A stretch of 47,768 nucleotides of DNA from Chloroflexia bacterium. GTDB lineage: Bacteria > Chloroflexota > Chloroflexia > QHBQ01 > JADMIH01. Under the pieces are notes generated by a model, which did not search any database, was not told where the DNA came from, and worked only from the letters and a program-made list of their open reading frames with translations. The stretch is taken from the NCBI GenBank assembly GCA_049580985.1, contig JBAURA010000444.1, forward strand, positions 1-47,768, in the 5' to 3' direction. The position numbers and the translations under genes are program-made. The first letter of the stretch is position 1; each line of letters begins with the position of its first letter. Of this stretch, positions 12,396 through 29,020 are shown one piece after another.

Positions 12396-13529
12396 ATGTC
12401 CGAGATAGATTTGGGTACTTTCGCCGAATATCTGCGTCCAATTGGCCCCCACATGCCACCACAGTTGATCTCGCCATCGTCTTTCGCCAACATATCACGC
12501 ACTGCTCACGTTTTACCGGGTGCGCTTGCGATGGGCCTGTTCGGTTTCGAGTGCCGGTTGGCCGAAGAGGCGCCTGTCGCTGACTTCCAGTTATGCGCCG
12601 ATGCGGCGTTCAACGCGAAGAACAGTCTCGCCCGTACCATAGCCTCCGGCAATGTGCTCTTGAACAACCACCGGGTGTGGCAGCGTATCAACGATTTCGT
12701 AGAGGCTTGGTCAGCATCAGAATCGCTGCTCAATAAGCATCTGCGCAACATCTGGCTTGAGTTCGATATAAGCGACGCGCCACGTGAAGTCCCGGTACCC
12801 AGCATCTTTTTAGGCCTCTATACCTCCGAAGAGAGACGGAGCACCCCAGCTGAAAACAACAACGGTACAGCGAACGAAAGAGCCGACCCCTCAACCATAC
12901 AGGTAGTGTGCTTAAACGCGCTAACACTGCTGATGGGTAACCCCGTGCTGGAGCCGGTAGCGCAGAAGTTCAGGGAAGCCATCCAGAAGATACCAGCTCC
13001 CGGTGAGGTAGGTTTTGTGGGCACTATGCTGGCCCGCAACGTGAATGCTTTCAGAATGATCGTAAGAGGTTTGGACCGGATGCGGATAATCGAGTATCTC
13101 TCCCATCTTCATTGGCCGGGGCAGCTCTCTGAGGTAGAAGCGGCGCTCGACTCCACATCACGCTTTAGCGATTATCTCTGGCTCAACATAGACGTTGGTG
13201 AGCACATATATCCAAAGATATCGTGGGAATGCTACTTCAATAAACGAGCGCAACCCCAGGATGACGGACGGTGGCAGGAATTCCTCGACTATCTAGTGGA
13301 GAGCGAGATGTGTCTCCCTGCCAAGCGGGAAGGGTTGCTGGCCTACCCGGCGGTTATAGGGCAGAGCACCGCCGGCGCTCTATGGCCCGATAGCCTGCGC
13401 CTGTTGTCTCGCGCACTTGGCCCTCTGGCTCTACGCAGGTGTGTGACCGCCTTGCACCACATCAAGATAGTGTATCAGCCTGGCCGGCCTCTCGAGGCCA
13501 AAGCATATCTGTGTGCTCATTATGAATAG
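12396..13529 (+). CDS. Hypothetical protein (possible ABBA/PT-barrel fold; unverified)
   Basis: 377-aa ORF with an ATG start. An AGGAG lies 6 nt upstream (12385-12389). I see no catalytic motif I can name. There are five spaced strand-turn-strand-like segments: LFGFECRLAEEAPVADFQLCA, IWLEFDISDAPREVPVPSIFLGLY, VGFVGTMLARNVNAFRMIVRGL, YLWLNIDVGEHIYPKISWECYF, LHHIKIVYQPGRPLEAKAYLCAHY. Confidence 0.6.
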   Translation: MSEIDLGTFAEYLRPIGPHMPPQLISPSSFANISRTAHVLPGALAMGLFGFECRLAEEAPVADFQLCADAAFNAKNSLARTIASGNVLLNNHRVWQRINDFVEAWSASESLLNKHLRNIWLEFDISDAPREVPVPSIFLGLYTSEERRSTPAENNNGTANERADPSTIQVVCLNALTLLMGNPVLEPVAQKFREAIQKIPAPGEVGFVGTMLARNVNAFRMIVRGLDRMRIIEYLSHLHWPGQLSEVEAALDSTSRFSDYLWLNIDVGEHIYPKISWECYFNKRAQPQDDGRWQEFLDYLVESEMCLPAKREGLLAYPAVIGQSTAGALWPDSLRLLSRALGPLALRRCVTALHHIKIVYQPGRPLEAKAYLCAHYE

Positions 13530-13546: not shown

Positions 13547-15157
13547 ATGAGTGGCCTAGACGAAGCGCTGGAGGCGTGGCGTGCTGCTATCGGAGAGGAT
13601 TACGTACGCACCGATCAAGTTACCTTGCGGCAGGTTGAGACGGCCACGTTTGCCACCTATCAGGAGGTGCCGGCCCTGCTTCTTCCCGGCAACCGCGACG
13701 AGGTGCAGCGCTGCGTTCGCATCGCCAATGCTTACAAGACGCCTCTCTACCCGGTGAGCACAGGCAAGAACTGGGGTTATGGCTCCAGGGTGCCCACCTA
13801 CAACGGTTGCGTGGTGATGAGCCTGGAGCGGCTGAACCGAATCGTTGATTTCAGCGAGGAGCTAGCTTACATCACGGTAGAGCCTGGGGTGACCTTCCTG
13901 GATGTGAACAGATTCTTGGCCGAACGAGGCTCCACCCTCAAGGTCAACCTCACCGGCAGTACTTACGAGTCGAGTCTGATCGGAAACGCGCTTGAGCGAG
14001 GCCTGGGCAGCGGTATCTATGGTGATCGCGCGGCACATGTATGCGATATGGAGGTGGTGCTGCCTACGGGTGAGCACCTGCGAACGGGTTTCGGGCGCTT
14101 TGAGGGGGCGGCGGCAAGCGTCAACCGCTGGGGTGTTGGACCATCCCTCGATAGCCTCTTTACCCAATCCAATCTCGGGATTGTGACCAGGATGACCTTC
14201 TGGTTGATGCCGATCTCCAAGCACAGATTTTCCTGCTACTTCGCAACAGACCCGGATGGACTGGAGAGTCTGATCGACGCTTTACATCATCTTCGCTCTT
14301 CCGGAATATGCAACGAGCCAATCCGCTTGTACAACGACTATAGGGCGCTGTCTGGAATCGTGCAGTTCCCCTGGCAGGCGATTGGGGCCGGAGATTTCTT
14401 AACGCCTGAGGTGATGTCAAGCATCCGGGAGGCGCTTGGGATCGGTGCATGGTTGGGCGAGTTGCATATTGATGCTCACAGTCCGGCTCAGGCCCGAGCC
14501 AGCCAGGAATTGGTATACAGCTCTCTGAAGGGCGTGACAAATACTCTCTACTTCGTGGACACGGGTGGGGCGCAATGGGTACCCATGACTGGGAACGCAA
14601 CAGAGGAGAATGGAGAACCGTTCACCCTCCAGCCCAGGCCGGCAGCAGAACAGGGACGAAGCCTTGAGACTCCAGGCGGAATCAGAAACACTTACTGGCG
14701 CAAGAGGACCCCGGTGCCGGAGAAAATGGACCCCGACCGCGACCGTTGCGGGGTGCTATGGTGCGCCCCGGCAGTACCGTTCATAGGGCGACACGTCGTC
14801 CGAGTTGTGCGCTGTATGGAGAAAGTGATCCTATCAGATCGATTCGAGCCTAACATCTCATTGGTTCTCCTTACGGAAAGATGCGCAATAGTGAACGCGG
14901 CGCTGCTGTACGACCGGGATGTGCCGGGGGAGGACGACCGCGCCATGCGTTGCTACCACACGCTCCTGCAGGAACTGATCGGGATGAGGTATCTACCCTA
15001 CCGGCTCGGTATTCAGTCGATGGACTCGCTCCCGGCCTCGTCCGGCGACTATGACGCCCTTCTTGCGCGGTTAAAAAAGTCCCTGGACCCAAACGACATC
15101 CTGGCACCAAGACGATACGATTTTCGAGCAACCTGGCCGCACGATATGACCGATTAA
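13547..15157 (+). CDS. FAD-linked oxidoreductase, VAO/PCMH (4-cresol dehydrogenase / vanillyl-alcohol oxidase-like) family
   Basis: 536-aa ORF. The N-terminal PCMH-type FAD-binding segment reads PALLLPGNRDEVQRCVRIANAYKTPLYPVSTGKNWGYGSRVP ... VVMSLERLNRIVDFSEELAYITVEPGVTF. It lies 17 nt downstream of the preceding gene. Confidence 0.75.
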   Translation: MSGLDEALEAWRAAIGEDYVRTDQVTLRQVETATFATYQEVPALLLPGNRDEVQRCVRIANAYKTPLYPVSTGKNWGYGSRVPTYNGCVVMSLERLNRIVDFSEELAYITVEPGVTFLDVNRFLAERGSTLKVNLTGSTYESSLIGNALERGLGSGIYGDRAAHVCDMEVVLPTGEHLRTGFGRFEGAAASVNRWGVGPSLDSLFTQSNLGIVTRMTFWLMPISKHRFSCYFATDPDGLESLIDALHHLRSSGICNEPIRLYNDYRALSGIVQFPWQAIGAGDFLTPEVMSSIREALGIGAWLGELHIDAHSPAQARASQELVYSSLKGVTNTLYFVDTGGAQWVPMTGNATEENGEPFTLQPRPAAEQGRSLETPGGIRNTYWRKRTPVPEKMDPDRDRCGVLWCAPAVPFIGRHVVRVVRCMEKVILSDRFEPNISLVLLTERCAIVNAALLYDRDVPGEDDRAMRCYHTLLQELIGMRYLPYRLGIQSMDSLPASSGDYDALLARLKKSLDPNDILAPRRYDFRATWPHDMTD

Positions 15158-15341: not shown

Positions 15342-15605
15342 GTGAGCGAGCATACATTTAACGATGAGAAACGTGAACTGGCTGCTAAGGTCGTGGATCG
15401 CATCCTGAGTGATGCCTCTTTCCGTGAGGCGCTCAAGAACGACCCGGATGCCGCTATGAACAGCACCTTCCCCGAGGAGTGGCAGGGCATATTTGAGTCC
15501 TTGGGCGATCCCGAGGTCGCTGGCTATCTGGATCAGGAGCCCATCGCAGGTGATGGCGATACCAACTGTTGCCAGGGCGGCACGGTCTGCAACCAGAGCT
15601 ACTAG
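15342..15605 (+). CDS. Lanthipeptide precursor 1 (NHLP-like leader, Cys/Ser/Thr-rich C-terminal core)
   Basis: 87 aa with a GTG start. AGGAG at 15331-15335 lies 6 nt upstream. The leader segment ELAAKVVDRILSDASFREALKNDPDAAMN resembles nitrile-hydratase-like leader peptides. A PEVAGY motif precedes the C-terminal region. The C-terminus is DTNCCQGGTVCNQSY. The gene is immediately upstream of a LanL gene. Confidence 0.8.
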   Translation: MSEHTFNDEKRELAAKVVDRILSDASFREALKNDPDAAMNSTFPEEWQGIFESLGDPEVAGYLDQEPIAGDGDTNCCQGGTVCNQSY

Positions 15606-15806: not shown

Positions 15807-18623
15807 ATGACCGTCGATATAGAGCGACAAGCTATCCCCTCGGAAAACATCAAGATCACAATGGTGAATATTGAGGTGGATGGAGCGGTGATCGCCCTGC
15901 GCGACGGGATGGAGCCGGAGTGGTACCAGCCATTCCTCCTGGAGGCGCTCGCGGCAAAGGTCGCCCAGGGTGAGGACGTTTCCGCCTGGGGAATTGAGCG
16001 AATCACCAGGCCAAAGCAGCTTTGGCTATACATGAGGAACGGGCGAGCCGATACACCCACGCACGGTTGGAAGCTTCACGTGTCTGCGTCGCTCCTGTCA
16101 GCGCGAGCGGTCCTGGAGCGAACGCTCCCAATCCTCCTTTCCGAAGACGCCACTTTCAAACTGTGCGCATCCTCTGCCGCGCTCCTATTCTTGAACCAGG
16201 GGTTCGGGGGCATCTCCCAGGTCGGCAAGTTCATAACTATATACCCCAACAACGACGAACAGGCAGTGCGATTGGCAGTAGCGTTGGATGCAGCGACTCG
16301 CGGCGTGCGCGCGCCCTCTGTTCTCTCCGACCGACCCCTCTCTCCCGGCAGCCTGGTGCATTACAGGTACGGCAGCTTCCGCAAGCAGCATATGCACACA
16401 AAGCTTGGCCTGATCGTGTCGGCGTTCGAAGGGCCGGACGGCAAATTGGTAAAAGACCACCGCGTGCATTTCTACGTGCCGCCGGATGGGGCGCAGGATC
16501 CGTTTGAGGCGGCGGGGGTGGCGGCTCCGCCGAAGCGCCCGGTGCGCATCGTGGGTGGTCGCTATTTTATATTGGCCCCGCATCGTGAGGCGGCACGCGG
16601 AGTTATCTACGATGCTATCGACACCGAAGTACCCCGCCAGTGCATCATCAAACATGCCAGACGGAACGCCGCTATCACGATAGACGGACGAGACGCCCGT
16701 GACCGGCTGCGCAACGAGGCTGAGGTGTTGAAGCGATTGGCTCCCCACCCGGCCTTCCCCGAGTTCTACGGTCTGTTTGAGGAGGACGATGAGCCATACC
16801 TGGTGATGGAGCGCATCGAGGGTACCACGCTTGAGCGTAAGGTCCGGCACCTCACCGTCGAGCATGGCTCCGTGCCCGGTCCCCAGTTCCTGACCTGGAG
16901 CCGCCAACTAGCCTCAGCATTGGGCGCGATCCACGCGGCAGGCCTTATTTACAGGGATTTCAAGTCGAACAACGTGCTGGTAACGCCCGAAGGGCGGTTG
17001 CGTGTCATCGACTTTGAGTTGGCCTACGACCCTGATGGACCGCTCCCGCAGTACAACTTCGGCACGAGGGGATATATGTCGCCGCAGCACAAAGCCTGGG
17101 AGCATGCAGACGTCAGGGACGACGTCTACAGCTACGGTGCTCTCCTCTACTATCTGGCGACCGGAGCCGAGGCATCGAATGCGCCCGACGACTCAAACCT
17201 GTTGAGCCGTCCAATCGAGCTGCTGAATCCTGCCGTCGCCTCGGACCTGAGCGCTCTCATAGCGCGTTGCGTGCACCCTGAGCGTGAGCAGCGCTTCGGC
17301 AGTATATTCGAAATTGAGGAAGCGCTTGCCGGCATAGAGACGGCCACGGTGCCCCCGCCTGCATGGGGAGCTGAAACGCCTGTTGAACCGGATGAGGTTG
17401 CCGCCGGCAGGTACAGGACATGGGCACGGCGCATCGGCGATACACTGTGCCGCACTGCGCAACCGGCAGACAATGGGCAAGGACTGGTGTGGCCCGGCGC
17501 GAAATCGTCGGACGATGCGATCACTTCGAACGACATAATCCAGTCCAGGCACATCAACGTGGGGGTGGCCGGGCAGGTGCTCGCACTGGCCGAGTTGGTC
17601 CGGGAGTTCAATGACCCCGAACATCGCCGCGTGTTAGAGGGCGGGGTTCGGTGGCTCCTCTCTGAGCAACGACTTAGTGGAGAACCCATCTCGGGCTTGT
17701 ACGTGGGCGAGGCAGGCGTGGCTATAGCCCTCCTGCGTGCGGGGCAGGTGCTGAACGACCCCGACGTCATCCGGGCCGCCTCCAGCCTGGGCAAGTGGGT
17801 GGGCGGATTGCCCGACTCGTCCCCATGCATGTTCGTAGGCACTGCTGGTCGGCTTCGCCACCACCTGCTGCTGTGGGACGAAACAGAAGATCCTGAGCAC
17901 CTGGGGTTCGCGGAGGCGGCCGGCGAGCAATTGCTGGACCTGGCAGAGCCTGGCGCGGACAACGGCCTGAGCTGGCAGGCCCCGAATGACTTTGGGGTGA
18001 GTGCCGCTAACCTGGGATACGCGCATGGGGCCGCCGGGATCGGAGATGCCCTTATCGACTTGTACGAGGCCACAGGGGACTCGAAGTACCTGGAGGCGGC
18101 GGCGGGAGCCGCGCGTTGGATCGCCGCATTGGCCGTACCCACCACCGACGAGGGATCGACAGGTCTCAACTGGGCGCGCTCCGAGCGTACGCCTCTTACA
18201 GAAGGGTTCTGGTGCCACGGAGCGGTAGGCATCGGCATATTCCTGCTGCGTGCTTCGCAGTTCGGAATCCTGGAAGGGGCCTTCGAGTTGGCGCACCGCG
18301 CGGCGGTGACGGTAGGGAGGAACATGCGTTGGGCAATGCCCATCTACTGTCACGGCCTGGCAGGCAATATCGGCTTTCTGCTGGATATGTACCAGGCCAC
18401 AGGTGACTCTCGCTACTGGTCCGAGGCCCGCTCGCTAGGGCGAATTCTAGGTACGTTCGCCACAGAGATCAACGGCCTGTTCGTGTGGGGCTCAGAGACC
18501 CCTACCAAATTCACGTCTGTGTATACGGTCGGTTTCTCCGGCATAGCCATGTGCCTGCTCCGACTCAGCAATCCTGGACAGATGCCACAACAGTTGAGTA
18601 GAGCCGGTTTCCGATACCGCTAG
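15807..18623 (+). CDS. Class IV lanthipeptide synthetase (LanL-type: N-terminal pSer/pThr lyase, Ser/Thr kinase, Zn-ligand LanC cyclase)
   Basis: The ORF track starts at 15657, but that extension overlaps the hairpin. The ATG at 15807 has AGGAG 6 nt upstream.
- Lyase motif: HGWKLHVSAS.
- Kinase motifs: LIYRDFKSNNVLV, VIDFELA, GTRGYMSPQ.
- LanC motifs with Zn ligands: GYAHGAAGIGDAL, FWCHGAVGIG, IYCHGLAGNIGFL. Confidence 0.9.
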   Translation: MTVDIERQAIPSENIKITMVNIEVDGAVIALRDGMEPEWYQPFLLEALAAKVAQGEDVSAWGIERITRPKQLWLYMRNGRADTPTHGWKLHVSASLLSARAVLERTLPILLSEDATFKLCASSAALLFLNQGFGGISQVGKFITIYPNNDEQAVRLAVALDAATRGVRAPSVLSDRPLSPGSLVHYRYGSFRKQHMHTKLGLIVSAFEGPDGKLVKDHRVHFYVPPDGAQDPFEAAGVAAPPKRPVRIVGGRYFILAPHREAARGVIYDAIDTEVPRQCIIKHARRNAAITIDGRDARDRLRNEAEVLKRLAPHPAFPEFYGLFEEDDEPYLVMERIEGTTLERKVRHLTVEHGSVPGPQFLTWSRQLASALGAIHAAGLIYRDFKSNNVLVTPEGRLRVIDFELAYDPDGPLPQYNFGTRGYMSPQHKAWEHADVRDDVYSYGALLYYLATGAEASNAPDDSNLLSRPIELLNPAVASDLSALIARCVHPEREQRFGSIFEIEEALAGIETATVPPPAWGAETPVEPDEVAAGRYRTWARRIGDTLCRTAQPADNGQGLVWPGAKSSDDAITSNDIIQSRHINVGVAGQVLALAELVREFNDPEHRRVLEGGVRWLLSEQRLSGEPISGLYVGEAGVAIALLRAGQVLNDPDVIRAASSLGKWVGGLPDSSPCMFVGTAGRLRHHLLLWDETEDPEHLGFAEAAGEQLLDLAEPGADNGLSWQAPNDFGVSAANLGYAHGAAGIGDALIDLYEATGDSKYLEAAAGAARWIAALAVPTTDEGSTGLNWARSERTPLTEGFWCHGAVGIGIFLLRASQFGILEGAFELAHRAAVTVGRNMRWAMPIYCHGLAGNIGFLLDMYQATGDSRYWSEARSLGRILGTFATEINGLFVWGSETPTKFTSVYTVGFSGIAMCLLRLSNPGQMPQQLSRAGFRYR

Positions 18624-18689: not shown

Positions 18690-19754
18690 ATGATCACTTC
18701 TACAAGTAACATCCTGGCTGAACACCTGCATAGGGCCGCCGGTGCTTACCGGCACGGCAAACGCCACCGTGTCTCTGCCGGTACTTCCACTGCCGTCGGC
18801 TTCGACCAGCTCCTGGGGGCTGCCATATTGAAGCATGCCTCCCCCAGGGAGCAGATGCTCATGAGTGCCGCCCTGGTCGCCCGCACCAGGGGTCTCGCGG
18901 CCGTGCGCAAGGGCGACATGGAGGTAGCCGAGGCGAACCTGCGCACCAGTCGTGACATTCTGGAAGTGCCCTGGCTTTCAACCGAGAGCCATGCTCTGCT
19001 TGCCTCATTCCAGGAGGCAGCCGAGGCCTTCATTGACTTTCGGTGCGGCCGGCATGACCTCGCCAGAAAGCGCGTTTTTCGCGCCATGTCGGCAGATGGC
19101 ACCCTCCTTTCGAGAGATGGATACCATGTCCTCGAATTGCACCGGGTACAGCTTGGACACAACCTGGCACGCGTCGATGCGAACGCGGGCGAGCCGGAGC
19201 GAGCTGCCCGCATACTAGCGGGCCTGCTCACCTATCTTGAAGGGGAGAGCGTAGCATGGCCTTTCCCCGATTACACCTACACTGGCAAAGCAACGGTGGA
19301 CGACTTGCCCGAGGAACAAGTGGCCGACCTGTTCATTCAGCTGACGAGCGAACTGGCGTTGTTGCTGGACGGCCAGGGGCGAGAGGAGGGGCTGGCACTG
19401 TTCGCCCCGGTCGTGGCGCATGCAGAATTGAAAGCAACTCGGCGCTGCGGACGGCACCCATCCGCGCACGCATGGCTCAGCCTGAAACTGGCCTACCTGG
19501 AGCGGAACGTGGTGGGCTTCCTGGAAGGCGCTCAGGAGGTACTGGCAGATGGCCCCAGGGAAGGCTCCCTTCTCTGGTATGCGACTGCTACCGATCTATA
19601 CAGGGAATGCGCCCGGCTGCTTGAGGACTGCCCAGCCGAGGCGAGCTCGCTAAGGAGCGAACTCGCCGAAGACGCTGTATCGTGGATCAGGGTACCGGCA
19701 GGACTCAAGGCCGGTGCCGGAGTAGCCGTGATGAAGCAACCGGCTCCCGCCTAA
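18690..19754 (+). CDS. Hypothetical helical (TPR-like?) protein inside the lanthipeptide locus
   Basis: The ORF track gives 18648..19754. The ATG at 18690 is preceded by AGAGG. The sequence is Ala/Leu/Arg-rich and predicted helical by eye. I find no motif I can assign. Confidence 0.55.
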   Translation: MITSTSNILAEHLHRAAGAYRHGKRHRVSAGTSTAVGFDQLLGAAILKHASPREQMLMSAALVARTRGLAAVRKGDMEVAEANLRTSRDILEVPWLSTESHALLASFQEAAEAFIDFRCGRHDLARKRVFRAMSADGTLLSRDGYHVLELHRVQLGHNLARVDANAGEPERAARILAGLLTYLEGESVAWPFPDYTYTGKATVDDLPEEQVADLFIQLTSELALLLDGQGREEGLALFAPVVAHAELKATRRCGRHPSAHAWLSLKLAYLERNVVGFLEGAQEVLADGPREGSLLWYATATDLYRECARLLEDCPAEASSLRSELAEDAVSWIRVPAGLKAGAGVAVMKQPAPA

Positions 19755-19830: not shown

Positions 19831-22800
19831 ATGCGCGGAGAAATGGGGCCCGGTATAAGCACCAGTTTGAGTCCAGGCGGCACCGTTGGCCCGGACTGGC
19901 ATAATCTACAGGGCAAATGGGTGGCGGTGCACGCGCCACAGGGCACCTACGCCGCCAAGCGCGCACCCTTGCTGCTACGCGAGGCCGAGCAAGTGGCCGA
20001 TGCCGTGGAACGGCTCCTCAAGCCCGACAAGCACCCGGATGGGAAAGCCGACATATTCTTGCTGGATCCCACCGCCGGTCTTGTCGAAGTGGGAGAAGAA
20101 GGCGAGGGAGAGGAACCCGAGGTGCAAGGCTACGCGGCCTCCTTTATGACGCCGGCGGCGGACACCGGCAGGTCTATTGTGCGGGTTGTGCGCCCCGAAG
20201 CTCCCGGCGAGGCGATAGCTCACTCCCTTTCGCACCTCCTTATCACCAAGTGGCTTGGCACGTCAGCCGGGTCCAGCCTTTTGTTTACGAGCGGTATCGC
20301 AGGCGTGGCGAACGCCCGCGCCGGCTTGGGAGAGTCTATCCAGGCATGTGACGAGTGGGTGCGGGCCGAGTTGGCGGCGGGCAGGCCGGTATCGGTGTTG
20401 AGAGCGGCGCGGCAGGAAGACCGCGACGGAGGAAGCATCGCAGCAAGTGAGGCGGATAAGCGCATCTCTACCTCCTTTGTAAACTACCTCATCGAAACCT
20501 TCGGGATAGTATCTCTCCGGCAATTCCTGGCCGGTTACGACCCGGACCGCCGCGATCAAGCCGCCATCAACGCCTACCAGAAGCCGATAGGCGCACTTGA
20601 GGAGGCATGGGTCAACACCCTCCGGCGCTCCTCCAGTAGCACCTCTATTTGGGGCTCGTTCCTGCGCCACATCATACCTCTGCTTAAGCCCTACCGGCTC
20701 CGCCAGTTGGAGGTGCTCCTCTACATGTTCCTGGGGCTGTCGTACGGTATTGTACTGCCCCTGTCGGGCAAGTACCTGATCGATACCGTAATCCCCAGCA
20801 ACGACCTCGGCCAGTTAGGTCTGTTCGTGCTTGGGCTGCTGGTGTTATACGTTGTGAACGCCCTGGTGGGTATGCGGCGCGGATATCTGACCAGCTGGAT
20901 CAACCAGGAGCTTATAAAGCGTCTCGACGAGCGGCTCTTCGCCCACCTGCAACGGCTGCCCCACACCTTCTTCGCCCAGATAAAGGTGGGCGATATCATG
21001 ACCCGCTTTACCAGCGATATGGCGATGGTGCAAACTGCGATACAGCAGGTGACCAGTACGGGGCCATTCATGGTGCTTACCGGACTGCTGGCTGCAACTA
21101 CCGTGATTATTCTCAGCCCTATCCTGGGAAGCCTTGTGCTACTTATCGTGCCGCTTTTCCTTCTCACCTATGTAACACTAGGCTCGCGCCTGCAAAAAGC
21201 CAGCACCCAGCGCCAGAAAATCCTGGGCGAAGTGATCAGTTCGTTGCAGGAGAACGTCTCGGCGCACGCCGTAGTGAAGGCATATGGGCTTGAGAAGAAG
21301 TCCCTTTCAATGTTCCGAACAGGCCTGGAGGCGCTCCAAAAGGCTTCGTTGCGCACGACCAAGATCGCTGTGCTCTTTGAAACAAGCACAAGCCTGGCGG
21401 TCACGCTGGGCCAGCTGATGGTACTGGGAGTGGGCGGCTACCTGGTGATGCAGAACCAACTCACTATAGGCACGCTGCTGGCTTTCGTGGGCCTCCTGCC
21501 GTCCCTGATCCAGCCTATCATGTCCCTCTCCAGCATAGGACAGACTGTCAAGACAGCCTCGGGAGCGATCAATCGTGTGACCGACCTGCTTGAGGAACCG
21601 GTGACCGTGGACGACAAGCCTGCTGCTGTGGACCTGCCCACGTTGAGCCGAGAGATCCGTCTTGAGGAGGTGGGCTTCTCATATGGCTCGGGCAACCCTA
21701 TCTTGAACGGCTTGAGCCTGACGATCCCTGCCGGAGCAAACGTGGCTATCGTAGGGCCATCCGGTTCCGGCAAGAGCACTATCGTAAGCCTGCTGATGCG
21801 CTTCTACGACCCTGAAGAAGGGAGTGTCCTATTCGACGGCCATGACCTGCGGGACGTGAAGCTAGCTTCACTGCGCAGCCAGATCGGATTGGTATTTCAG
21901 GATACATTCATATACGACACCACCGTCAGAGAGAACATCGCGCATGGCAGGTCAGGAGCTACCGATGTGGAGATTGTGGCTGCCGCTAAGGCCTCCCAAT
22001 TGCACGAGTTTATAGAGGCGCTACCGTCCGGCTACGACACCGTGCTGGGCGAGCGGGGCGTGCGTATGAGCGGGGGCCAGCGACAGCGCCTGGCGATTGC
22101 CAGGGCGTTGATTCGCGACCCACGAATCCTGGTACTCGATGAAGCTACTAGCGCCCTCGACTCGCATACCGAGCGAGAGATCCTGGACACGCTTGACGAC
22201 GTGGCCAGGGGGCGAACGGTGATCAGCATCACCCACCGGCTCGCTATCGCCGCCGCCGCCGACTATATCTTTGTGCTGGAGCGTGGGCGGCTGGTGGAGG
22301 AGGGAAACCATGCTACTCTCGTAAAGGCGGGCGGGTTGTACTCCAGGTTGTATGCAGAGCAGACCAGCGGAGTTGCTCTCCCGGATGGCTCGAGCGTCGG
22401 TCTCGATCAACTGAGGACTGTGCCTCTCTTCGGCGGCTTCTCGGATCCCCTCCTCACCTCCCTAGCCCGTAAGATGGTGCGTGAGCGTTTCTTCGTTGAC
22501 GAAGACGTGGTGCGTGAGGGTGAGCCGGGGGACAAACTGTACGTCGTGCAACGGGGTAGCCTGGAGGTGCTGGTGGGAGCGCAGGGCGAAGAGCGCAAGG
22601 TAAACTCGCTCCATCCCGGCGAGTACTTTGGTGAAATGGCGCTGCTGACAGGTGAGCCACGCGGTGCTACGGTGCGTGCCACCGAACCCACCGAGGTGTT
22701 CAGCCTTTCGAGGCTGGACTTCCTCAACCTGGTGGAACAGGAGGAGGCCCTACGAACATCGGTGCGGAATACCCTGGAGAGCAGGCGCAAGGCGCTGGAT

Positions 22801-22848
22801 CTGGTACGTGCGGGCAGTGCGCAGCCGCAAGCGCAGCGGCTCAAGTAG
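19831..22848 (+). CDS. ABC exporter (TMD+NBD) with an N-terminal peptidase-MA-like (degenerate HExxH) domain and a C-terminal cyclic-nucleotide-binding domain
   Basis: The ORF track starts at GTG 19801. The ATG at 19831 has GGAGG 5 nt upstream.
- ~290-aa N-domain containing AIAHSLSHLLITKW.
- Six-helix ABC membrane region: LLYMFLGLSYGIV..., IKVGDIMTRFTSDM.
- Walker A: GPSGSGKST.
- Signature: LSGGQRQRLAIARAL.
- Walker B: ILVLDEATSALD.
- CAP/cNMP domain: LRTVPLFGGFSD...GEYFGEMALLTGEPRGATVRA. Confidence 0.88.
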   Translation: MRGEMGPGISTSLSPGGTVGPDWHNLQGKWVAVHAPQGTYAAKRAPLLLREAEQVADAVERLLKPDKHPDGKADIFLLDPTAGLVEVGEEGEGEEPEVQGYAASFMTPAADTGRSIVRVVRPEAPGEAIAHSLSHLLITKWLGTSAGSSLLFTSGIAGVANARAGLGESIQACDEWVRAELAAGRPVSVLRAARQEDRDGGSIAASEADKRISTSFVNYLIETFGIVSLRQFLAGYDPDRRDQAAINAYQKPIGALEEAWVNTLRRSSSSTSIWGSFLRHIIPLLKPYRLRQLEVLLYMFLGLSYGIVLPLSGKYLIDTVIPSNDLGQLGLFVLGLLVLYVVNALVGMRRGYLTSWINQELIKRLDERLFAHLQRLPHTFFAQIKVGDIMTRFTSDMAMVQTAIQQVTSTGPFMVLTGLLAATTVIILSPILGSLVLLIVPLFLLTYVTLGSRLQKASTQRQKILGEVISSLQENVSAHAVVKAYGLEKKSLSMFRTGLEALQKASLRTTKIAVLFETSTSLAVTLGQLMVLGVGGYLVMQNQLTIGTLLAFVGLLPSLIQPIMSLSSIGQTVKTASGAINRVTDLLEEPVTVDDKPAAVDLPTLSREIRLEEVGFSYGSGNPILNGLSLTIPAGANVAIVGPSGSGKSTIVSLLMRFYDPEEGSVLFDGHDLRDVKLASLRSQIGLVFQDTFIYDTTVRENIAHGRSGATDVEIVAAAKASQLHEFIEALPSGYDTVLGERGVRMSGGQRQRLAIARALIRDPRILVLDEATSALDSHTEREILDTLDDVARGRTVISITHRLAIAAAADYIFVLERGRLVEEGNHATLVKAGGLYSRLYAEQTSGVALPDGSSVGLDQLRTVPLFGGFSDPLLTSLARKMVRERFFVDEDVVREGEPGDKLYVVQRGSLEVLVGAQGEERKVNSLHPGEYFGEMALLTGEPRGATVRATEPTEVFSLSRLDFLNLVEQEEALRTSVRNTLESRRKALDLVRAGSAQPQAQRLK

Positions 22849-22934: not shown

Positions 22935-23195
22935 ATGGTTAAGCCAAGTGTAGATGAGATCAGGGCCGTAGCGGCGCAGATAGTAGAACGCGCAAACCGC
23001 GACCCGCAGTTTATGGAGCAGCTTAGGAACGATCCGGAGACGGTGCTCCTTGATGCAGGCCTCCATGAAAGCGCCGTAGGAGACTTTATGCGGTCAGCAG
23101 GCCTCATGCCTGAGGTGCAAGGCTATATCCTGGAGGACCTGGATGTGCCGTGCCAGTACTCGTGTCTGCCTAACACGCATGGGGGAATAGGCTAA
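22935..23195 (+). CDS. Lanthipeptide precursor 2 (NHLP-like leader)
   Basis: 86 aa with an ATG start. AGGAGG lies ~9 nt upstream. The leader reads EIRAVAAQIVERANRDPQFMEQLRNDPETVLLDAGL, followed by a PEVQGY motif. The C-terminal region is ILEDLDVPCQYSCLPNTHGGIG. Confidence 0.75.
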   Translation: MVKPSVDEIRAVAAQIVERANRDPQFMEQLRNDPETVLLDAGLHESAVGDFMRSAGLMPEVQGYILEDLDVPCQYSCLPNTHGGIG

Positions 23196-23333: not shown

Positions 23334-23645
23334 ATGAGTTCGGATTCCAACAACCAGCAAAGCAACGAAATCAGAGAAGTAGCCCACAGAATTCTCGAAC
23401 GTGCCAAGAGCGACCCAAATTACCTGGAGCAACTCAAGAGCGATCCGGAAGCCACGCTCGCGCGGGAGGGTCTAAGCGGCCCGGTAGTCACGCAGCTAAT
23501 AGGCGAGTTTGGGCTGGTAGAGGTAGAGGGGTATTGCGATTTCACTTGTGACTATAGTTGCAACACTGGCACCTGCCAGCTCACTTATTGCGCCCATATT
23601 CCTCAAACCGGAGGGCCGATGGAGACGCAAGTAGTTGGGGGTTGA
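23334..23645 (+). CDS. Lanthipeptide precursor 3 (NHLP-like leader, five-Cys core)
   Basis: 103 aa with an ATG start and a GGAGG RBS. The leader reads EIREVAHRILERAKSDPNYLEQLKSDPEATLAREGL, followed by a VEVEGY motif. The core is CDFTCDYSCNTGTCQLTYCAHIPQTGGPMETQVVGG. The stop codon is 3 nt before the second LanL start. Confidence 0.8.
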   Translation: MSSDSNNQQSNEIREVAHRILERAKSDPNYLEQLKSDPEATLAREGLSGPVVTQLIGEFGLVEVEGYCDFTCDYSCNTGTCQLTYCAHIPQTGGPMETQVVGG

Positions 23646-23648
23646 TGA

Positions 23649-26480
23649 TTGAGCCACCAGGACTTCTTGGCATCACCACACTCTCCGGGTGGAGGATCTG
23701 ATACGAAATACTTGTTGGAGCAAGGCCTGCTCGACGCGCGCCCGGCGGATCTCGCCATAGCAGAGCTTCCTCTAGATCTCGAGAGCGGCCCGTATTGGGC
23801 AATAGCGCGGGAGGCCTGCGAGCAGGCGGGCGACGAATCCACCTGGAGCGTGGAACTAACCTTCGGAGCGGGTGGCGACTGGATCCGGGTCGCCCATGTT
23901 GCGGCGACCGTTCCGAGCCAGGGGTGGAAGCTGCACGTTTCGGCCACCCTCACTTCGGCGGAGGACGTGCTGCGGCATGCCCTCCCAGTGCTCTTGTCCG
24001 AACCGATCTCGTTCAAGCTGGCGTCTACCCCCGCCGCTCTGCTCAACCTGAACCAGGGTGGCGGGGGCATGAGCCAGATTGGCAAGTTCATCACCGTCTA
24101 CCCCGCCACAGATGACCAGGCCGTACGCCTCGCATCGTTACTTGATCAAGCTCTTGATGGTATGCTGGGTCCCGCTATACCGTCAGATCGCCCGCTGAGG
24201 ACAGGCAGCCTTGTGCACTATCGCTACGGCGGCTTCAACAGCACCTTCACCCAGTTACCGGTCGGCGAGATAGTGCCCACTATCAGCACCCCGGAAGGAA
24301 TCCTCACGCCCGACCGCCGTCTCACCCTGTATAAAGCACCCGAATGGGCAACGGATCCATTCGTGGAAGCAGAAATCGCGATAGATATTCCCAGGAAGCG
24401 ATGGATCGCAGGTCGCTATCTCATACTCAATACCGTGCACGCTTCGCCTCGCGGGGCCGTTTATCTCGCTCTCAACTTCGAAAACTCCCGATGTTGTGTG
24501 CTCAAGAGCGCGCCGCACCAGGCCGCGCAAGGGTTCGATGGGTATGGCGCTCAGGACCGTCTGCGTAATGAAGCACACATCCTCACACAACTCTCGCCTC
24601 ACCCGGCCTTCCCCGCCTTTTATGACCTGATCGAGCAGGATGGCGATCTTTACCTCGTGATGGAGGATATCGAAGGGGAGACGCTCATGAGGCACGTGGG
24701 GCGATTGGCGGCACAAGGAGTGCGCGTGCCCAACGAGCAAGTGATCGAGTGGGGGCGGCAGCTCGCAAGCATCCTCGGAGAGCTACACGAAAGAGGCTTA
24801 GCGTACAGAGACGTCAAGCCAACGAACGTGATCGTCACCGCCTTTGAGCGCCTGCGTCTGATCGACCTTGAGCTATGTTGCGCCCTGGACGGCAGTAGTA
24901 CCCATGGGGCGGGGATCGGTACGAGAGGATACATGTCCCGGCAACAGGCCTCAGGTGAGCAACCCGGCGTTCTGGATGATGTATACGGCCTGGGGGCTCT
25001 CCTCTACTTCCTGTCCACAGGCGCCGAACCCTCGACAGCGCCCGATGGCGTCAATCTGCTGGCGCGCCCAATCCAATGGCTGAATCCCCTTTGTGATCCC
25101 ACACTGGCGTCTGTAATACAGCGATGCCTCGATCCTGAGCCTGCCGGTAGATATAGCACGATGCAGGAACTCGACACGGCGCTTTCCACCATTCTGGAAA
25201 TCCGATCCAAAACTCCTCTCACCGTGGCTACAGAGGCTTCATTCGAGCCTGACCGCGAGGAGAAACTTGCTGAGCACTATCGAGACCTGGCGCGGCGTCT
25301 CGCCGATTCCATCTGCCGAGAAGCGGTAGTCGTGAAGAACGACACAGGGGAGGGCCTTACCTGGGCCACCAAACACCCAAGTGGCTATGGGATGCAACTG
25401 CGTGACCTGAACATAGGCGCAGGTGGGGTGGTGCTCGCCCTCGCTGAGTTGGTGGGGGAGTTAGGCGACCCCTGGCACCGAGAGGTATTGGAACAGGCTG
25501 CGCATCACCTTGCGCGCACGCAGCCGCTGGCGCGAACGCCCCTCCCAGGGCTTTACGTGGGCGAGGCGGGCGTCGGGGTAGCCCTATTACGCGCCGGACA
25601 GGTATTGGGGAGCAACCGGTTGGTCGAGGCCGCTGCCGCCAAGGGCCGCATGATCTCGGCGTTACCACATACTTCACAGGACCTGTTCAACGGCTCGGCA
25701 GGCCGCTTACGTTTTCATCTGTGGTTGCTACACGCCACAGGTGAGCGAGAGCACCTCGATAACGCGCTCCAGGCAGGCGAATACTTGCTAACCTCCGGCA
25801 CCGCGCCCGCGCCAGACGAGCTACTCTGGGAGATACCAGCGGGCTACGAGGGTCTCAGCGGCAACAGTTACCTCGGGTACGCGCACGGGGCGGCCGGGAT
25901 CGGGGACGCATTGCTAGATCTTTTCGATTGTACGGGCCAGCAGCGATTCCTGGAGGCGGCGGTGGCGGCGGGACGCTGGCTTGTGCGGCATGCGATACCC
26001 GCACTTGATGGAGACACGGGGTTAGCCTGGCCGAGCGTCCCTGGCGGGGCGGCATTTTCACCCTTCTGGTGCCACGGCGCCACCGGGGTCGGGCGCTTCT
26101 TTCTTCACCTGGTTAGCCTCGATGCTCTTCCAGGAGCAGATGCGGTCCTGGAACGAGCATCTCGGAGCGCGGCATGGGGGGCTACATGGGCGGGTCCAAC
26201 GCTATGCCACGGGCTGGCAGGCAATATTGAATTACTGGTCGATGTATACGTTGCCACAGGCAGCAAGAGATTTTTGAAAGACGCGCATGAGTTGGCTCGT
26301 TTACTCGAAACCATGGGCAGAGAGCACAATGGGATGCTCCAATGGCCTTCCGACTCCAGCAGCGTGATCACGCCCGACTATATGGTGGGATACTCTGGGG
26401 TGGCGGCCTGCCTTCTAAGGCTGAGCGCGCCTGACCGCTTGCCCCATCTATTAAGCTATCGCCGATTCTCAACTCAATAG
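23649..26480 (+). CDS. Class IV lanthipeptide synthetase (LanL-type), second copy
   Basis: 943 aa with a TTG start, tightly coupled to precursor 3.
- Lyase motif: QGWKLHVSAT.
- Kinase motifs: LAYRDVKPTNVIV, LIDLELC, GTRGYMSRQ.
- LanC motifs: GYAHGAAGIGDAL, FWCHGATGVG, LCHGLAGNIELL.
The distance from the N-terminus to the GWKLHVS motif matches copy 1. Confidence 0.9.
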   Translation: MSHQDFLASPHSPGGGSDTKYLLEQGLLDARPADLAIAELPLDLESGPYWAIAREACEQAGDESTWSVELTFGAGGDWIRVAHVAATVPSQGWKLHVSATLTSAEDVLRHALPVLLSEPISFKLASTPAALLNLNQGGGGMSQIGKFITVYPATDDQAVRLASLLDQALDGMLGPAIPSDRPLRTGSLVHYRYGGFNSTFTQLPVGEIVPTISTPEGILTPDRRLTLYKAPEWATDPFVEAEIAIDIPRKRWIAGRYLILNTVHASPRGAVYLALNFENSRCCVLKSAPHQAAQGFDGYGAQDRLRNEAHILTQLSPHPAFPAFYDLIEQDGDLYLVMEDIEGETLMRHVGRLAAQGVRVPNEQVIEWGRQLASILGELHERGLAYRDVKPTNVIVTAFERLRLIDLELCCALDGSSTHGAGIGTRGYMSRQQASGEQPGVLDDVYGLGALLYFLSTGAEPSTAPDGVNLLARPIQWLNPLCDPTLASVIQRCLDPEPAGRYSTMQELDTALSTILEIRSKTPLTVATEASFEPDREEKLAEHYRDLARRLADSICREAVVVKNDTGEGLTWATKHPSGYGMQLRDLNIGAGGVVLALAELVGELGDPWHREVLEQAAHHLARTQPLARTPLPGLYVGEAGVGVALLRAGQVLGSNRLVEAAAAKGRMISALPHTSQDLFNGSAGRLRFHLWLLHATGEREHLDNALQAGEYLLTSGTAPAPDELLWEIPAGYEGLSGNSYLGYAHGAAGIGDALLDLFDCTGQQRFLEAAVAAGRWLVRHAIPALDGDTGLAWPSVPGGAAFSPFWCHGATGVGRFFLHLVSLDALPGADAVLERASRSAAWGATWAGPTLCHGLAGNIELLVDVYVATGSKRFLKDAHELARLLETMGREHNGMLQWPSDSSSVITPDYMVGYSGVAACLLRLSAPDRLPHLLSYRRFSTQ

Positions 26481-27022: not shown

Positions 27023-29020
27023 TCATCGAATCTGGCAATTGGGGAAGAACGTATTGGCGACGATCTTGGCCGACTGCCCTCTGGTAACATAGGCATTGGA
27101 CCTGAAGTACGGGCGATTCTGTGGCGGTACGCACTCCTCTCCAGGACCTCCACACGGATAGCCACCTATCGCGCCGCTACTTGCGAGGCCCTCTACCCAT
27201 GTCCAGAAGGTGGAGCCCGGAGGCACATCCTCGAACGTATGCTGCTCGCTCGGCGGCACGGGTAGATTAGCTGCGATAGCTGCGATCTTAGAGGTCTGAA
27301 CCCTTGTTACATAGGCATTGGGCCGGAAGTACGGGCGATTCTGTGGCGGTACGCACTCCTCTCCCGGCGCGCCGCAAGGATAACCGCTGATGATGTTCCG
27401 TGAGGATAGGCGCTCTACAAACTGGTGGAAAGTGGAGCCTGGAGGCACATCCTGGAACGTCTGGTTCGCATGGCTCTCTGAGTAACCTGCGGCATTGGAG
27501 ACGATCTTTGATAATTGGCCACGTGTCACCTGGTTGTTCGGCCTGAAGGTGCCGTCTGTGTAGCCCGATATGATGCTTCGGCACGCCAGGCACATCACAA
27601 ACGGGTGGAATGTGCTTCCCGAAGGTACATCGCTGAAATGGAGGACGCACGCTTCACTGACGCGGTCGCGAAGGAATACGTCGCGGGTATCGTTGTTATC
27701 GCCCGGCACCAGATTACTGGCATAAGAGCCAAAGACCACGTACCGCCCATCTGAACTGACCTGGGGCTTATGGCTGTAGCCGAGGCCTGGTTGGCCGCTA
27801 GATGTGAGGCTGATCTGCTCGGTTGTGTTCGCCTGTAAATCGCGCGAGTAAATGTCGGTCACGATATTGGGGTCGGTGGGCGCGAGGCGTGCGTTCGACT
27901 GGAAAACTACATAGCGCCCGTTCCCGCTGATGTTGGGGTCGGTGCTGTGACCTGTGCCCTGGACACCCGCAGAGTCGACGCTAACACGCATGGTGCTGTC
28001 CGTCAAGTCTCGCACGAAGATATCAAGGCTATCATTGGTATCATTGACAACCAGGTTGGAAGCGAGAGACTCAAATGCCACATAGCGACCATCGTCACTC
28101 ACCGAGGCTTCAACGCTGCGGTTGTTACCCTGGACACCTCCAGAACCGGTACTCGCAAGCACGATGGTGTTCTCAGTACGATCGCGTACAAACACATCAA
28201 AGTTCATATTGCCGTCGCCGGGGACCAGGTTGTCCGCTAATGAGTGGAAGGCGACGTAGCGGCCATCAAAGCTGATGTATGGGTCAAAAGAATGGTTGCT
28301 GCCCACCTGATTAAGAGCATTCTTGCTGATAAGCTCGAATCCGCCCGACACCAGGTCGGTCACATAGACGTCCCGCGCACCCTGCGTGTCCTCCGGGACC
28401 AGGGAGGCATAGGTATGAAACACCACGAAGCGCCCATTTCCACTGATGAACGGGGCCTCGGTACCGAAGCTATCCTGCCCGATGATACTGTTCTGGCCCG
28501 TCAGCCTGTTATAAACGAACGCGTCGGCACTGCCATCGCCATCCCCCTGCACGATGTTTTCAGCATCCGACAGATAGGCGATGTAATTTCCATCGGCGCT
28601 GATACTCGGATCGAGGCTCAGGCCATTTGCGGGGCTACCATCATACCCACGGCTGATAAGCGTGGTTGTGCCCTCTTGCCGGTCGCGTAGGAATACATCG
28701 GGGTGGCCGTTAGTGTCCCCCGGTACCAGGTTGGACGCGAACGAGTAGAAGGCGACGAACCGCCCATCGGCACTCACTCCCGTGCGTATCCCCTCGATGC
28801 CACTTGCATTATTACCCTGGGCCTCATTGTCGGCCAGGCTCACCATCTCGGTGACGGCTAACGGCACAGTAGGGACGCTTCCACCTGAAGACCCCTTGCT
28901 CTCTTGAGCCGGTTGCTCCGCACCTACAGGGGTCAGAAGCAAGCCAAACATAGCGAGGCCGCTCGCTGCGGCTACCAGAGCCTGTCGGATTCGCCCTCTC
29001 TTGATATGTGATGAAAACAA
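27023..29020 (-). CDS. Secreted beta-propeller (TolB/PD40-like repeats) protein with three C-terminal SLH domains
   Basis: 665 aa with a TTG start. AGGAG lies 7 nt upstream. The signal peptide is RQALVAAASGLAMFGLLLTPVGA. There are about nine repeats of the type DGRFVAFYSFASNLVPGDTNGHPDVFLRD. The C-terminal SLH units read FSDVPSGSTFHPFVMCLACRSIISGYTDGTFRPNNQVTRGQLSKIV and two similar copies. Confidence 0.85.
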   Translation of the reverse strand: MFSSHIKRGRIRQALVAAASGLAMFGLLLTPVGAEQPAQESKGSSGGSVPTVPLAVTEMVSLADNEAQGNNASGIEGIRTGVSADGRFVAFYSFASNLVPGDTNGHPDVFLRDRQEGTTTLISRGYDGSPANGLSLDPSISADGNYIAYLSDAENIVQGDGDGSADAFVYNRLTGQNSIIGQDSFGTEAPFISGNGRFVVFHTYASLVPEDTQGARDVYVTDLVSGGFELISKNALNQVGSNHSFDPYISFDGRYVAFHSLADNLVPGDGNMNFDVFVRDRTENTIVLASTGSGGVQGNNRSVEASVSDDGRYVAFESLASNLVVNDTNDSLDIFVRDLTDSTMRVSVDSAGVQGTGHSTDPNISGNGRYVVFQSNARLAPTDPNIVTDIYSRDLQANTTEQISLTSSGQPGLGYSHKPQVSSDGRYVVFGSYASNLVPGDNNDTRDVFLRDRVSEACVLHFSDVPSGSTFHPFVMCLACRSIISGYTDGTFRPNNQVTRGQLSKIVSNAAGYSESHANQTFQDVPPGSTFHQFVERLSSRNIISGYPCGAPGEECVPPQNRPYFRPNAYVTRVQTSKIAAIAANLPVPPSEQHTFEDVPPGSTFWTWVEGLASSGAIGGYPCGGPGEECVPPQNRPYFRSNAYVTRGQSAKIVANTFFPNCQIR

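Follow-up and report, generated by a model that had tools for sequence, protein, structure and literature searches.

A tri-domain ABC exporter among class IV lanthipeptide genes of a Chloroflexia bacterium, with a predicted pseudo-peptidase domain ahead of its core and a cyclic-nucleotide-binding domain behind it

What purpose is served by an ATP-binding cassette (ABC) exporter that carries what looks like a dead peptidase at its N-terminus and a second-messenger receptor at its C-terminus? This question is raised by a gene of 1005 codons on contig JBAURA010000444.1 of a Chloroflexia bacterium (assembly GCA_049580985.1), of which the whole analyzed stretch of 47,768 nucleotides is referred to here as the window. 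The answer that we favor, at a probability of roughly 55%, is that the protein exports class IV lanthipeptides, that its N-terminal pseudo-peptidase domain docks the substrate and that transport is licensed by a cyclic nucleotide. The parts of the protein on which this proposal is built are as follows (window coordinates, strand and assignment).

19831–22848, plus strand: tri-domain ABC exporter gene, 1005 aa (NCBI MGA7731970.1, from a Chloroflexia metagenome-assembled genome, MAG)
19831–20700, plus strand: N-terminal cytoplasmic domain (N-domain), aa 1–290, predicted degenerate gluzincin (clan MA) fold with no zinc site (AlphaFold2, Foldseek)
20701–21540, plus strand: transmembrane domain (TMD), aa ~291–570, elbow helix and transmembrane helices (Pfam, hydropathy scan)
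21628–22365, plus strand: nucleotide-binding domain (NBD), aa ~600–845, with intact Walker A, Walker B, signature and H-loop
22402–22848, plus strand: PKA/PKG-type cyclic-nucleotide-binding (CNB) domain, phosphate-binding cassette at nt 22627–22680 (Pfam, PDB matches)

The first matter to be settled was whether the three parts belong together. The gene is a single open frame running from GTG 19801 or ATG 19831 to 22848 on the plus strand, and ATG 19831, the start used by the gene callers in two public assemblies, gives the 1005-aa product that a sequence-only reading of the window had described as one protein of three parts. Residues 1–290 form the N-domain, for which nothing above threshold was found in Pfam or NCBIfam, residues ~291–845 the ABC core and residues ~858–1005 the CNB domain, under a database name that reads only "ABC transporter transmembrane domain-containing protein". 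Both strings singled out in that reading are present, AHSLSHLL at aa 130–137 and FGEMALLTGEPRGATVRA at aa 933–950 (nt 22627–22680). The same reading had named a sequencing or assembly frameshift joining separate genes as a possible origin of the fusion, and frameshifts do occur in several homologous loci from Nanopore-based MAGs. An identical 1005-aa protein is, however, encoded on a 1.6-Mb ENA contig and in an independent Logan assembly, so the fusion is not a frameshift artefact; a 1003-aa orthologue that clusters with it at 90% identity is encoded on a third, syntenic contig, from JGI, at least 13 other genome loci hold intact open reading frames (ORFs) of 966–1106 aa bearing all three parts, as do ~30 full-length metagenomic representatives, and the layout recurs in dozens of distant homologues. 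An artefactual origin is refuted.

The distribution of the architecture, a survey of which had been proposed in the sequence-only reading, bears this out. Starting from the N-domain, a word-indexed search picked up one relative only, and an exhaustive HMMER search was required: against 1.84 billion representatives it returned 162 clusters at 50% identity, 104 of them at E<=1e-10 and ~33 full length (930–1130 aa). A CNB domain is present in 47 of the 56 family members that contain an NBD, and most members without one have ORFs that are truncated or come from Nanopore assemblies with frameshifts; a k-mer search started from the CNB tail yielded chiefly stand-alone CNB fragments. One genome per species was then scanned, which gave 23 loci, all in MAGs. 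The window proteins were compared with these 23 loci by tblastn, and two further loci (L026 and L027; L numbers denote loci throughout) were added. The 23 loci belong to Chloroflexia/Chloroflexota, Thermomicrobiales, Actinomycetota (Gaiellales and others), Abditibacteriaceae, Acidobacteriota and one bin labeled Alphaproteobacteria. Judged by these sequences, the three-part architecture is a real family spread over several phyla. In the long-read MAGs with isolate names beginning MFD (L009, L015, L016, L020, L022, L023, L024) the exporter gene is frameshifted.

The ABC core is the most conventional part. Pfam assigns ABC_membrane (PF00664) to aa 305–562 (E 2e-39, 136 bits) and ABC_tran (PF00005) to aa 625–774 (E 4e-36, 125 bits), and the NBD retains Walker A (GPSGSGKST), the signature (MSGGQRQR), Walker B with the catalytic glutamate (ILVLDEATSALD) and the H-loop (ITHRL). 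The core is thus that of a type-IV (B-family) ABC exporter half-transporter, in agreement with the earlier assignment of a standard TMD plus NBD, there termed type I. With these motifs intact the ATPase should be active and, since only a half-transporter is encoded, the exporter presumably acts as a homodimer. As to substrate class the core says little: its best NCBIfam matches are generic and all below their cutoffs (MsbA-related, 456 bits; HlyB, 411; TAP, 402).

The C-terminal domain is equally clear in kind. Pfam cNMP_binding (PF00027) covers aa 891–970 at E 1.7e-22 and 79.6 bits against a cutoff of 27.5 (83.3 bits when the domain is scanned alone), and in searches of the PDB the C-terminal 148 residues give PKG at 1.5e-28, regulatory subunits of PKA at ~1e-23 to 1e-26 and bacterial cyclic-nucleotide-gated channels at ~1e-13. 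The cassette FGEMALLTGEPRGATV aligns with PKG and PKA cassettes such as FGERALLYDEPRSATI, its FGE...PR(G)ATV elements falling in register and supplying the Gly-Glu and Arg-x-Ala features of a phosphate-binding cassette. The CNB domain with a phosphate-binding cassette that the sequence-only reading had proposed is therefore borne out. A linker of ~15 residues connects it to the NBD. That the signal is cAMP or cGMP specifically, and that it gates transport, we judge slightly better than an even bet. The competing view is that the CNB fold senses another ligand, for instance ppGpp, or is purely structural, and that transport is not gated by cyclic nucleotides at all. CRP/FNR-type CNB folds bind diverse ligands, and the cassette arginine, kept in most homologues, is cysteine or histidine in two of them (L010, L021). 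The nearest functional precedent points the same way: the cNMP-binding domain of the peptide exporter HetC bound ppGpp, not cAMP, in vitro (PMC10986499), so that the ligand of the present domain cannot be assumed. Against this stand the closest similarity of our domain to true cyclic-nucleotide receptors, PKG and the regulatory subunits of PKA, the retention of the FGE and PR(x)AT elements in most members, and the recurrence of a cyclic-nucleotide-type GAF protein and a class III cyclase in the same neighborhoods (see below). We consider a ligand other than cAMP or cGMP distinctly unlikely. The Arg-to-Cys and Arg-to-His changes in L010 and L021 may, for their part, be sequencing errors rather than biology.

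The N-domain required structure prediction, which had also been suggested in the sequence-only reading. With a 2-sequence alignment AlphaFold2 gave a predicted local distance difference test score (pLDDT) of 35, and a confident model was obtained only with 46 sequences (pLDDT 85.6, predicted template modeling score 0.79). In order, this model has two strands, a long helix (40–63), two strands, a helix (129–142), a second helix (150–163) and a helical bundle that continues into the elbow helix of the transporter. The top 50 Foldseek matches in the PDB are all metallopeptidases, from families M9 (peptidase domains of the collagenases ColH, ColG and ColT), M30 (lugdulysin), M61 (an aminopeptidase) and M1 (IRAP, ERAP1/2, LTA4H, PepN, APN) plus one other (AM0627), with probabilities of 0.75–1.0, mostly near 1, and query-length-normalized TM-scores mostly of 0.35–0.49. 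The named matches in the viral library BFVD are enhancin-like, M61 and M1-like. Sequence profiles reach the same clan from below threshold: Peptidase_MA_2 (PF13485) weakly matches 10 of the 46 family members (best E 2.4e-4) and scores 11.7 bits (E 0.22) on the query N-domain against a gathering threshold of 32.4; each match covers only the C-terminal third of the profile. Searched against the PDB by sequence and by profile, the N-domain gave no meaningful match, only a short chance one to AvrB (E 0.3). Since the PDB matches, the viral library and the recurrent Peptidase_MA_2 signal agree, we assign a clan-MA, gluzincin-type fold; the β-sheet, the backing helix, the active-site helix and the glutamate helix are all found in the model, at modest TM-scores, and the peptidase-MA-like layout recognized earlier from the letters alone is thereby upheld. 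A hydropathy scan found no hydrophobic segment ahead of TM1 (aa 293); given that the TMD has six helices and that the NBD is cytoplasmic, the N-domain must lie in the cytoplasm as well. Taken together, we hold the architecture and the fold of the exporter with high confidence.

Whether this domain could still be a peptidase depends on two short stretches.

20218–20241, plus strand: AHSLSHLL, aa 130–137, on the predicted helix 129–142 that takes the place of the gluzincin active-site helix
20290–20307, plus strand: S154-G155-I-A-G-V, at the start of helix 150–163; family consensus (D/E)-G-L-A-G

In M1 peptidases the zinc ligands and the catalytic glutamate follow the spacing HExxH-X18-E(G). Position 154 lies 19 residues past position 135 and is followed by a near-invariant glycine (G155, in 77 of 80 homologous N-domains aligned), which is the M1 spacing, and yet the ligands themselves are missing. 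At position 131 the alignment has R in 21, W in 13 and Y in 8 sequences, with His in this protein only; at 132, P in 28, A in 20 and S in 10, with Glu in 3; at 135, R in 46, E in 12 and H in 5; and at 154, D in 35 and E in 17, with Ser in this protein. The family consensus at 131–135 is R-P-L-T-R against HSLSH here, and no conserved His/Cys/Glu set was found anywhere in the N-domain family alignment. The His pair, with H131 unique among 80 and H135 shared by 5, is therefore not a conserved remnant, and the earlier description of an HExxH motif with Glu replaced by Ser is misleading in that it understates the loss. By the residue counts, the whole family has lost its zinc site and the N-domain is a pseudo-peptidase; its probable inactivity, put forward earlier, is supported in that the family retains neither zinc ligands nor the catalytic Glu and has no plausible catalytic site.

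One may nonetheless argue that the domain is an active, unconventional leader peptidase that cleaves and exports in the manner of a peptidase-containing ABC transporter (PCAT), using H131 and H135 or noncanonical residues of the family. The gluzincin fold, the H131-x3-H135 pair on the right helix of this protein, the D or E at 154 in 52 of 80 members and the known removal of class III and IV lanthipeptide leaders by M1 gluzincins (PMC10885120) all speak for such an activity. However, no other member has His131, and Glu132 (3 of 80) and His135 (5 of 80) are rare; Ser154 leaves this protein without third ligand and catalytic base; neither His nor Cys is conserved anywhere in the N-domain; and the transporter has a conserved companion in the S8 protease, whose triad is intact. 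We regard catalysis by this domain as very improbable, and return to the pseudo-peptidase as a possible substrate receptor.

For such a receptor the window offers candidate substrates, since the exporter is positioned between two lanthipeptide synthetase genes with three precursor genes close by.

15342–15605, plus strand: precursor A, 87 aa, leader resembling the nitrile-hydratase-like leader peptide (NHLP) clan, junction PEVAGY, Cys/Thr-containing core
15807–18623, plus strand: LanL-1, class IV lanthipeptide synthetase (RamC_N lyase, kinase and LanC; NF038150 at 670 bits against 650)
22935–23195, plus strand: precursor B, 86 aa, junction PEVQGY
23334–23645, plus strand: precursor C, 103 aa, junction VEVEGY
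23649–26480, plus strand: LanL-2, class IV lanthipeptide synthetase (NF038150 at 665.8 bits against 650)

With both LanL proteins above the NF038150 cutoff and precursors rich in Ser, Thr and Cys, this is a class IV lanthipeptide cluster. The three leaders invoked in the sequence-only reading, and its placing of the exporter among genes for peptides synthesized ribosomally and modified post-translationally (RiPPs), thus hold; the double-Gly leaders that it cites as background do not apply, as the leaders here end in [ED]VxGY. This motif stands directly ahead of the Cys/Ser/Thr-rich core in all precursors of all loci, in several phyla and with variants such as EVAGY, EVSGY, DVSGY, DVTGY and EVEGY among others (precursors at 6090–7198 in L007; 6028–6291 and 9606–9878 in L009; 5897–6936 in L014; 5522–6824 and 13000–13317 in L016; 4583–9809 in L017 and L018; 9486–9833 in L019), and is very probably both the leader/core junction and the processing site. 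The leaders score 15.6–19.6 bits on TIGR03793 against a cutoff of 50.9 and 23–26 bits on NF038399 against 40, which amounts to a clan-level resemblance to NHLP and not to membership. A RiPP-export role of the transporter is, on this context, likely.

A copy of the junction is found in the exporter itself.

20116–20133, plus strand: PEVQGY, aa 96–101, in a disordered, nonconserved loop of the N-domain (pLDDT <50 for aa 95–111)

The hexapeptide is identical to the junction of precursor B, and the L005 member (~41% identity) has EEVTGY in the same loop, around aa 89; ~0.16 junction-like copies in N-domain loops are expected by chance, and no other member has one. In a minority of members the loop may serve as a pseudo-substrate in cis or as a site for a protease, or its resemblance to the junction may be coincidence. 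A family-wide pseudo-substrate role was rejected, the copy being limited to this protein with its near-identical orthologue and to L005.

Three further cluster genes were recorded here. A FAD_binding_4 oxidoreductase, encoded just upstream of precursor A (13547–15157, plus strand), may be a tailoring enzyme. Two proteins of 354/368 aa (18690–19754, plus strand) and 377 aa (12396–13529, plus strand) gave no match in Pfam or NCBIfam and are shared with L027 only, the nearest orthologous locus; they may have a part in tailoring or immunity.

A candidate for removal of the leaders lies on the opposite strand in an array ~12.5 kb upstream of the exporter.

6361–7257, minus strand: GAF protein of the cyclic-nucleotide-binding type, always paired with the S8 protease (PDB matches)
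5473–6351, minus strand: small S8 subtilase, no signal peptide, triad D49/H89/S233, candidate leader peptidase
2470–5424, minus strand: class III nucleotide cyclase (Guanylate_cyc, 1.2e-13) fused to NB-ARC and TPR (a STAND protein), directly downstream of the S8 gene

The best PDB matches of the GAF protein are all cyclic-nucleotide-binding GAF domains, namely CyaB2 (6e-21), the phosphodiesterase 5w10, PDE10A, PDE2A, PDE5 and PDE6, and the protease most resembles QhpE, a leader protease of the cytoplasm, although its 118.6 bits fall short of the cutoff of 165 for that model. The TPR part of the cyclase protein scores 138 bits on HaaT, a TPR model from cyclophane RiPPs, far below its cutoff. 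A GAF gene followed immediately by an S8 gene accompanies the exporter in 16 of the 23 loci, and in a further one, L022, the GAF gene is cut off by the contig end. At least 10 loci have LanL together with one to five precursors in tandem, and homologues of the cyclase lie near the exporter in L004, L005, L009, L016 and L025, that is, in six loci counting the window. Even P0058 of L026, an exporter of only ~30% identity, adjoins LanL, precursor, GAF and S8. This suggests that the GAF and S8 proteins form a cyclic-nucleotide-regulated cytoplasmic leader peptidase. The account of a docking exporter given in the sequence-only reading is thus supported in its fold, its CNB domain and its RiPP context, and incomplete in that it had missed the likely leader peptidase, the S8 protease paired with GAF.

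These neighborhoods also bear on the simplest competing function, that of an MsbA-like exporter of lipids or drugs, or of a pump for self-immunity, for which the RiPP genes next door would be uninformative and the extra domains would serve unrelated regulation. The generic, sub-cutoff NCBIfam matches of the core would suit such a pump, as would several loci in which the triad of exporter, GAF and S8 occurs with no LanL within 10 kb. On the other hand, adjacency to LanL and tandem precursors recurs in at least 10 loci from several phyla and persists down to the ~30% identity of L026, a protease companion fits peptide maturation and not lipid export, and the LanL cluster of the window encodes no other transporter. 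A generic pump is, in our view, unlikely.

We thus arrive at the following scheme for the proposed lanthipeptide exporter. The nature of the domains, the lost active site and the conservation of both the fusion and its neighborhood are shown by the sequences and models; the substrate, the docking, which ligand binds and in which direction it regulates are inferred. The LanL enzymes would modify precursors with long NHLP-like leaders that end in [ED]VxGY. The dead peptidase domain, placed as C39 and C39-like domains are in other exporters, would keep its substrate cleft, dock the leader or the junction and feed the transporter, and the cytoplasmic S8 protease would remove the leader. The STAND-controlled class III cyclase would make a cyclic nucleotide that binds both the exporter CNB domain and the GAF partner of the protease, and by this shared signal leader cleavage and export would be licensed together. 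The CNB domains would probably act by controlling NBD dimerization, as do the C-terminal regulatory domains of some ABC importers. Docking is plausible because of the precedent of the HlyB-type C39-like domain and because gluzincins serve as leader peptidases of class III and IV lanthipeptides; we nevertheless place docking of leader or junction by the N-domain at slightly below even odds. A more elaborate form of the scheme, a second-messenger module in which the nucleotide switches on both the GAF-S8 protease and the CNB exporter, with the dead peptidase as an independently invented receptor and the loop copy as a pseudo-substrate in a few members, is possible and rather doubtful.

Several observations weigh against the scheme as a whole. 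The fold assignment of the N-domain draws on marginal Foldseek E-values (~1e-3) beside its modest TM-scores, and helix 129–142 is equated with the HExxH helix through topology and motif spacing, so that we hold this correspondence as a working assignment. A basic N-domain that would complement acidic leaders was considered and dropped, the family N-domains being net acidic (median -4.5), and a local Arg cluster on the former active-site helix is the sole remaining charge hint. The two altered cassette arginines and the ppGpp bound by HetC caution against taking a cyclic nucleotide for granted, and only about one locus in four has a cyclase close to the exporter. In ~8 loci with the exporter-GAF-S8 triad no LanL or precursor lies within 10 kb, and the triad may serve other substrates too. 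Finally, the homologues all come from uncultured MAGs.

Other genes of the window were noted beside this machinery. A SAM-dependent methyltransferase (7263–8180, minus strand) lies immediately upstream of GAF and S8 on the same strand and was not found in other loci, bar one weak match in L022. Three large STAND/TPR regulators surround the cluster, a BTAD-TPR protein (8499–12071, minus strand), an HTH-NB-ARC-TPR protein (29496–32123, plus strand) and an NB-ARC-TPR-LuxR protein (32893–35484, plus strand), and with the cyclase-STAND protein they form an unusually dense set of signal-transducing ATPases. Just downstream of LanL-2, a 665-aa cell-envelope protein with SLH and a PD40 β-propeller (27023–29020, minus strand) shows no evident link to the cluster.

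Should the proposal hold, it would describe a second independent peptidase fold recruited as a noncatalytic substrate receptor on an ABC exporter, and a pseudo-peptidase drawn from the same clan as the leader peptidases of class III and IV lanthipeptides would give a handle on how NHLP-type leaders are recognized for export. With a textbook cyclic-nucleotide receptor sitting directly on a transporter NBD, second-messenger control of RiPP secretion becomes directly testable. More broadly, LanL, [ED]VxGY precursors, GAF, S8, exporter and sometimes cyclase would make up a widespread, undescribed class IV lanthipeptide pathway; among the matches there is no cultured representative of the LanL-GAF-S8-exporter cassette, and the likely leader protease and the cleavage motif would be useful for heterologous production. 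As neither Pfam nor NCBIfam has a model for the N-domain, it deserves to be defined as a family of its own.

How does this exporter compare with those already described? We found no family model, source annotation or paper (open-access PMC, bioRxiv) that describes the architecture or the cassette, and the opinion that the combination is not a described exporter type therefore stands for the architecture; it does not stand for the pairing of a peptidase with a cNMP domain, which is known from HetC (PMC10986499). The general frame is that of PCATs (PMC6363468), the ABC transporter maturation and secretion (AMS) proteins and HlyB-type exporters, in which a type-IV core is preceded by an N-terminal domain of peptidase fold, located in the cytoplasm and presumed to recognize the substrate. 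In HlyB this is the C39-like domain (CLD), a peptidase domain that has lost catalysis and is retained to dock the substrate. The fold in all of these is that of the C39 cysteine peptidases, whereas the gluzincin fold found here is unrelated. Pfam finds no Peptidase_C39 match in our exporter, TIGR01193 and TIGR03796 align to its TMD and NBD only, and the bacteriocin_ABC model does so from position 177 on, without the peptidase part. The double-glycine site (GG/GA/GS) of PCAT/AMS substrates is likewise absent from the leaders, which carry [ED]VxGY in its place.

The NHLP/Nif11 export systems, in which TIGR03796/TIGR03797 work with the HlyD-like TIGR03794 (PMC2887384), are close in purpose, being dedicated ABC exporters for RiPP precursors with long nitrile-hydratase-like leaders. 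Our core reaches 350 and 321 bits on TIGR03796 and TIGR03797, well short of their respective cutoffs, 853 and 709. The exporter lacks a C39 domain, the scanned neighbors include no HlyD-like partner, and the precursors stay below threshold on the NHLP models (15–26 bits against cutoffs of 34–51). For the N-domain itself the closest parallel is with the M1 gluzincins AplP and SflL, known to remove the leaders from class III and IV lanthipeptides (PMC10885120), which with M61 belong to the same structural clan by Foldseek and act in the same type of pathway. Those enzymes are soluble and active (HExxH-X18-E), are of far greater size and mostly have their genes elsewhere than in the cluster, whereas the present domain is ~270 aa, fused to a transporter and devoid of a zinc site, with sequence similarity undetectable in PDB profile searches. 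Gluzincins of the AplP/SflL type are a plausible evolutionary source for a leader-binding pseudo-peptidase.

The most instructive comparison is with HetC from Nostoc sp. PCC 7120. This PCAT carries at its N-terminus an extra cNMP-binding domain, without which it does not function in vivo (PMC10986499). Both proteins are single-polypeptide ABC exporters, for peptides in the case of HetC and by prediction here, that bring a peptidase-type and a cNMP-fold domain together on the cytoplasmic side. The order differs, being cNMP, C39, TMD and NBD in HetC and pseudo-gluzincin, TMD, NBD and cNMP in our protein, which thus lacks the cNMP domain N-terminal to an active C39 and ABC core that marks the HetC type; the resemblance is functional only. 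The HetC peptidase is an active, papain-like C39 against a dead zinc-peptidase fold here, our CNB domain is much closer to PKA and PKG than one that bound ppGpp, and HetC serves heterocyst signaling in cyanobacteria whereas the present family is found with class IV lanthipeptide clusters of Chloroflexota, Actinomycetota and other phyla. What sets our protein apart is a gluzincin in place of C39, its inactivity, a CNB domain at the C-terminus and a different pathway.

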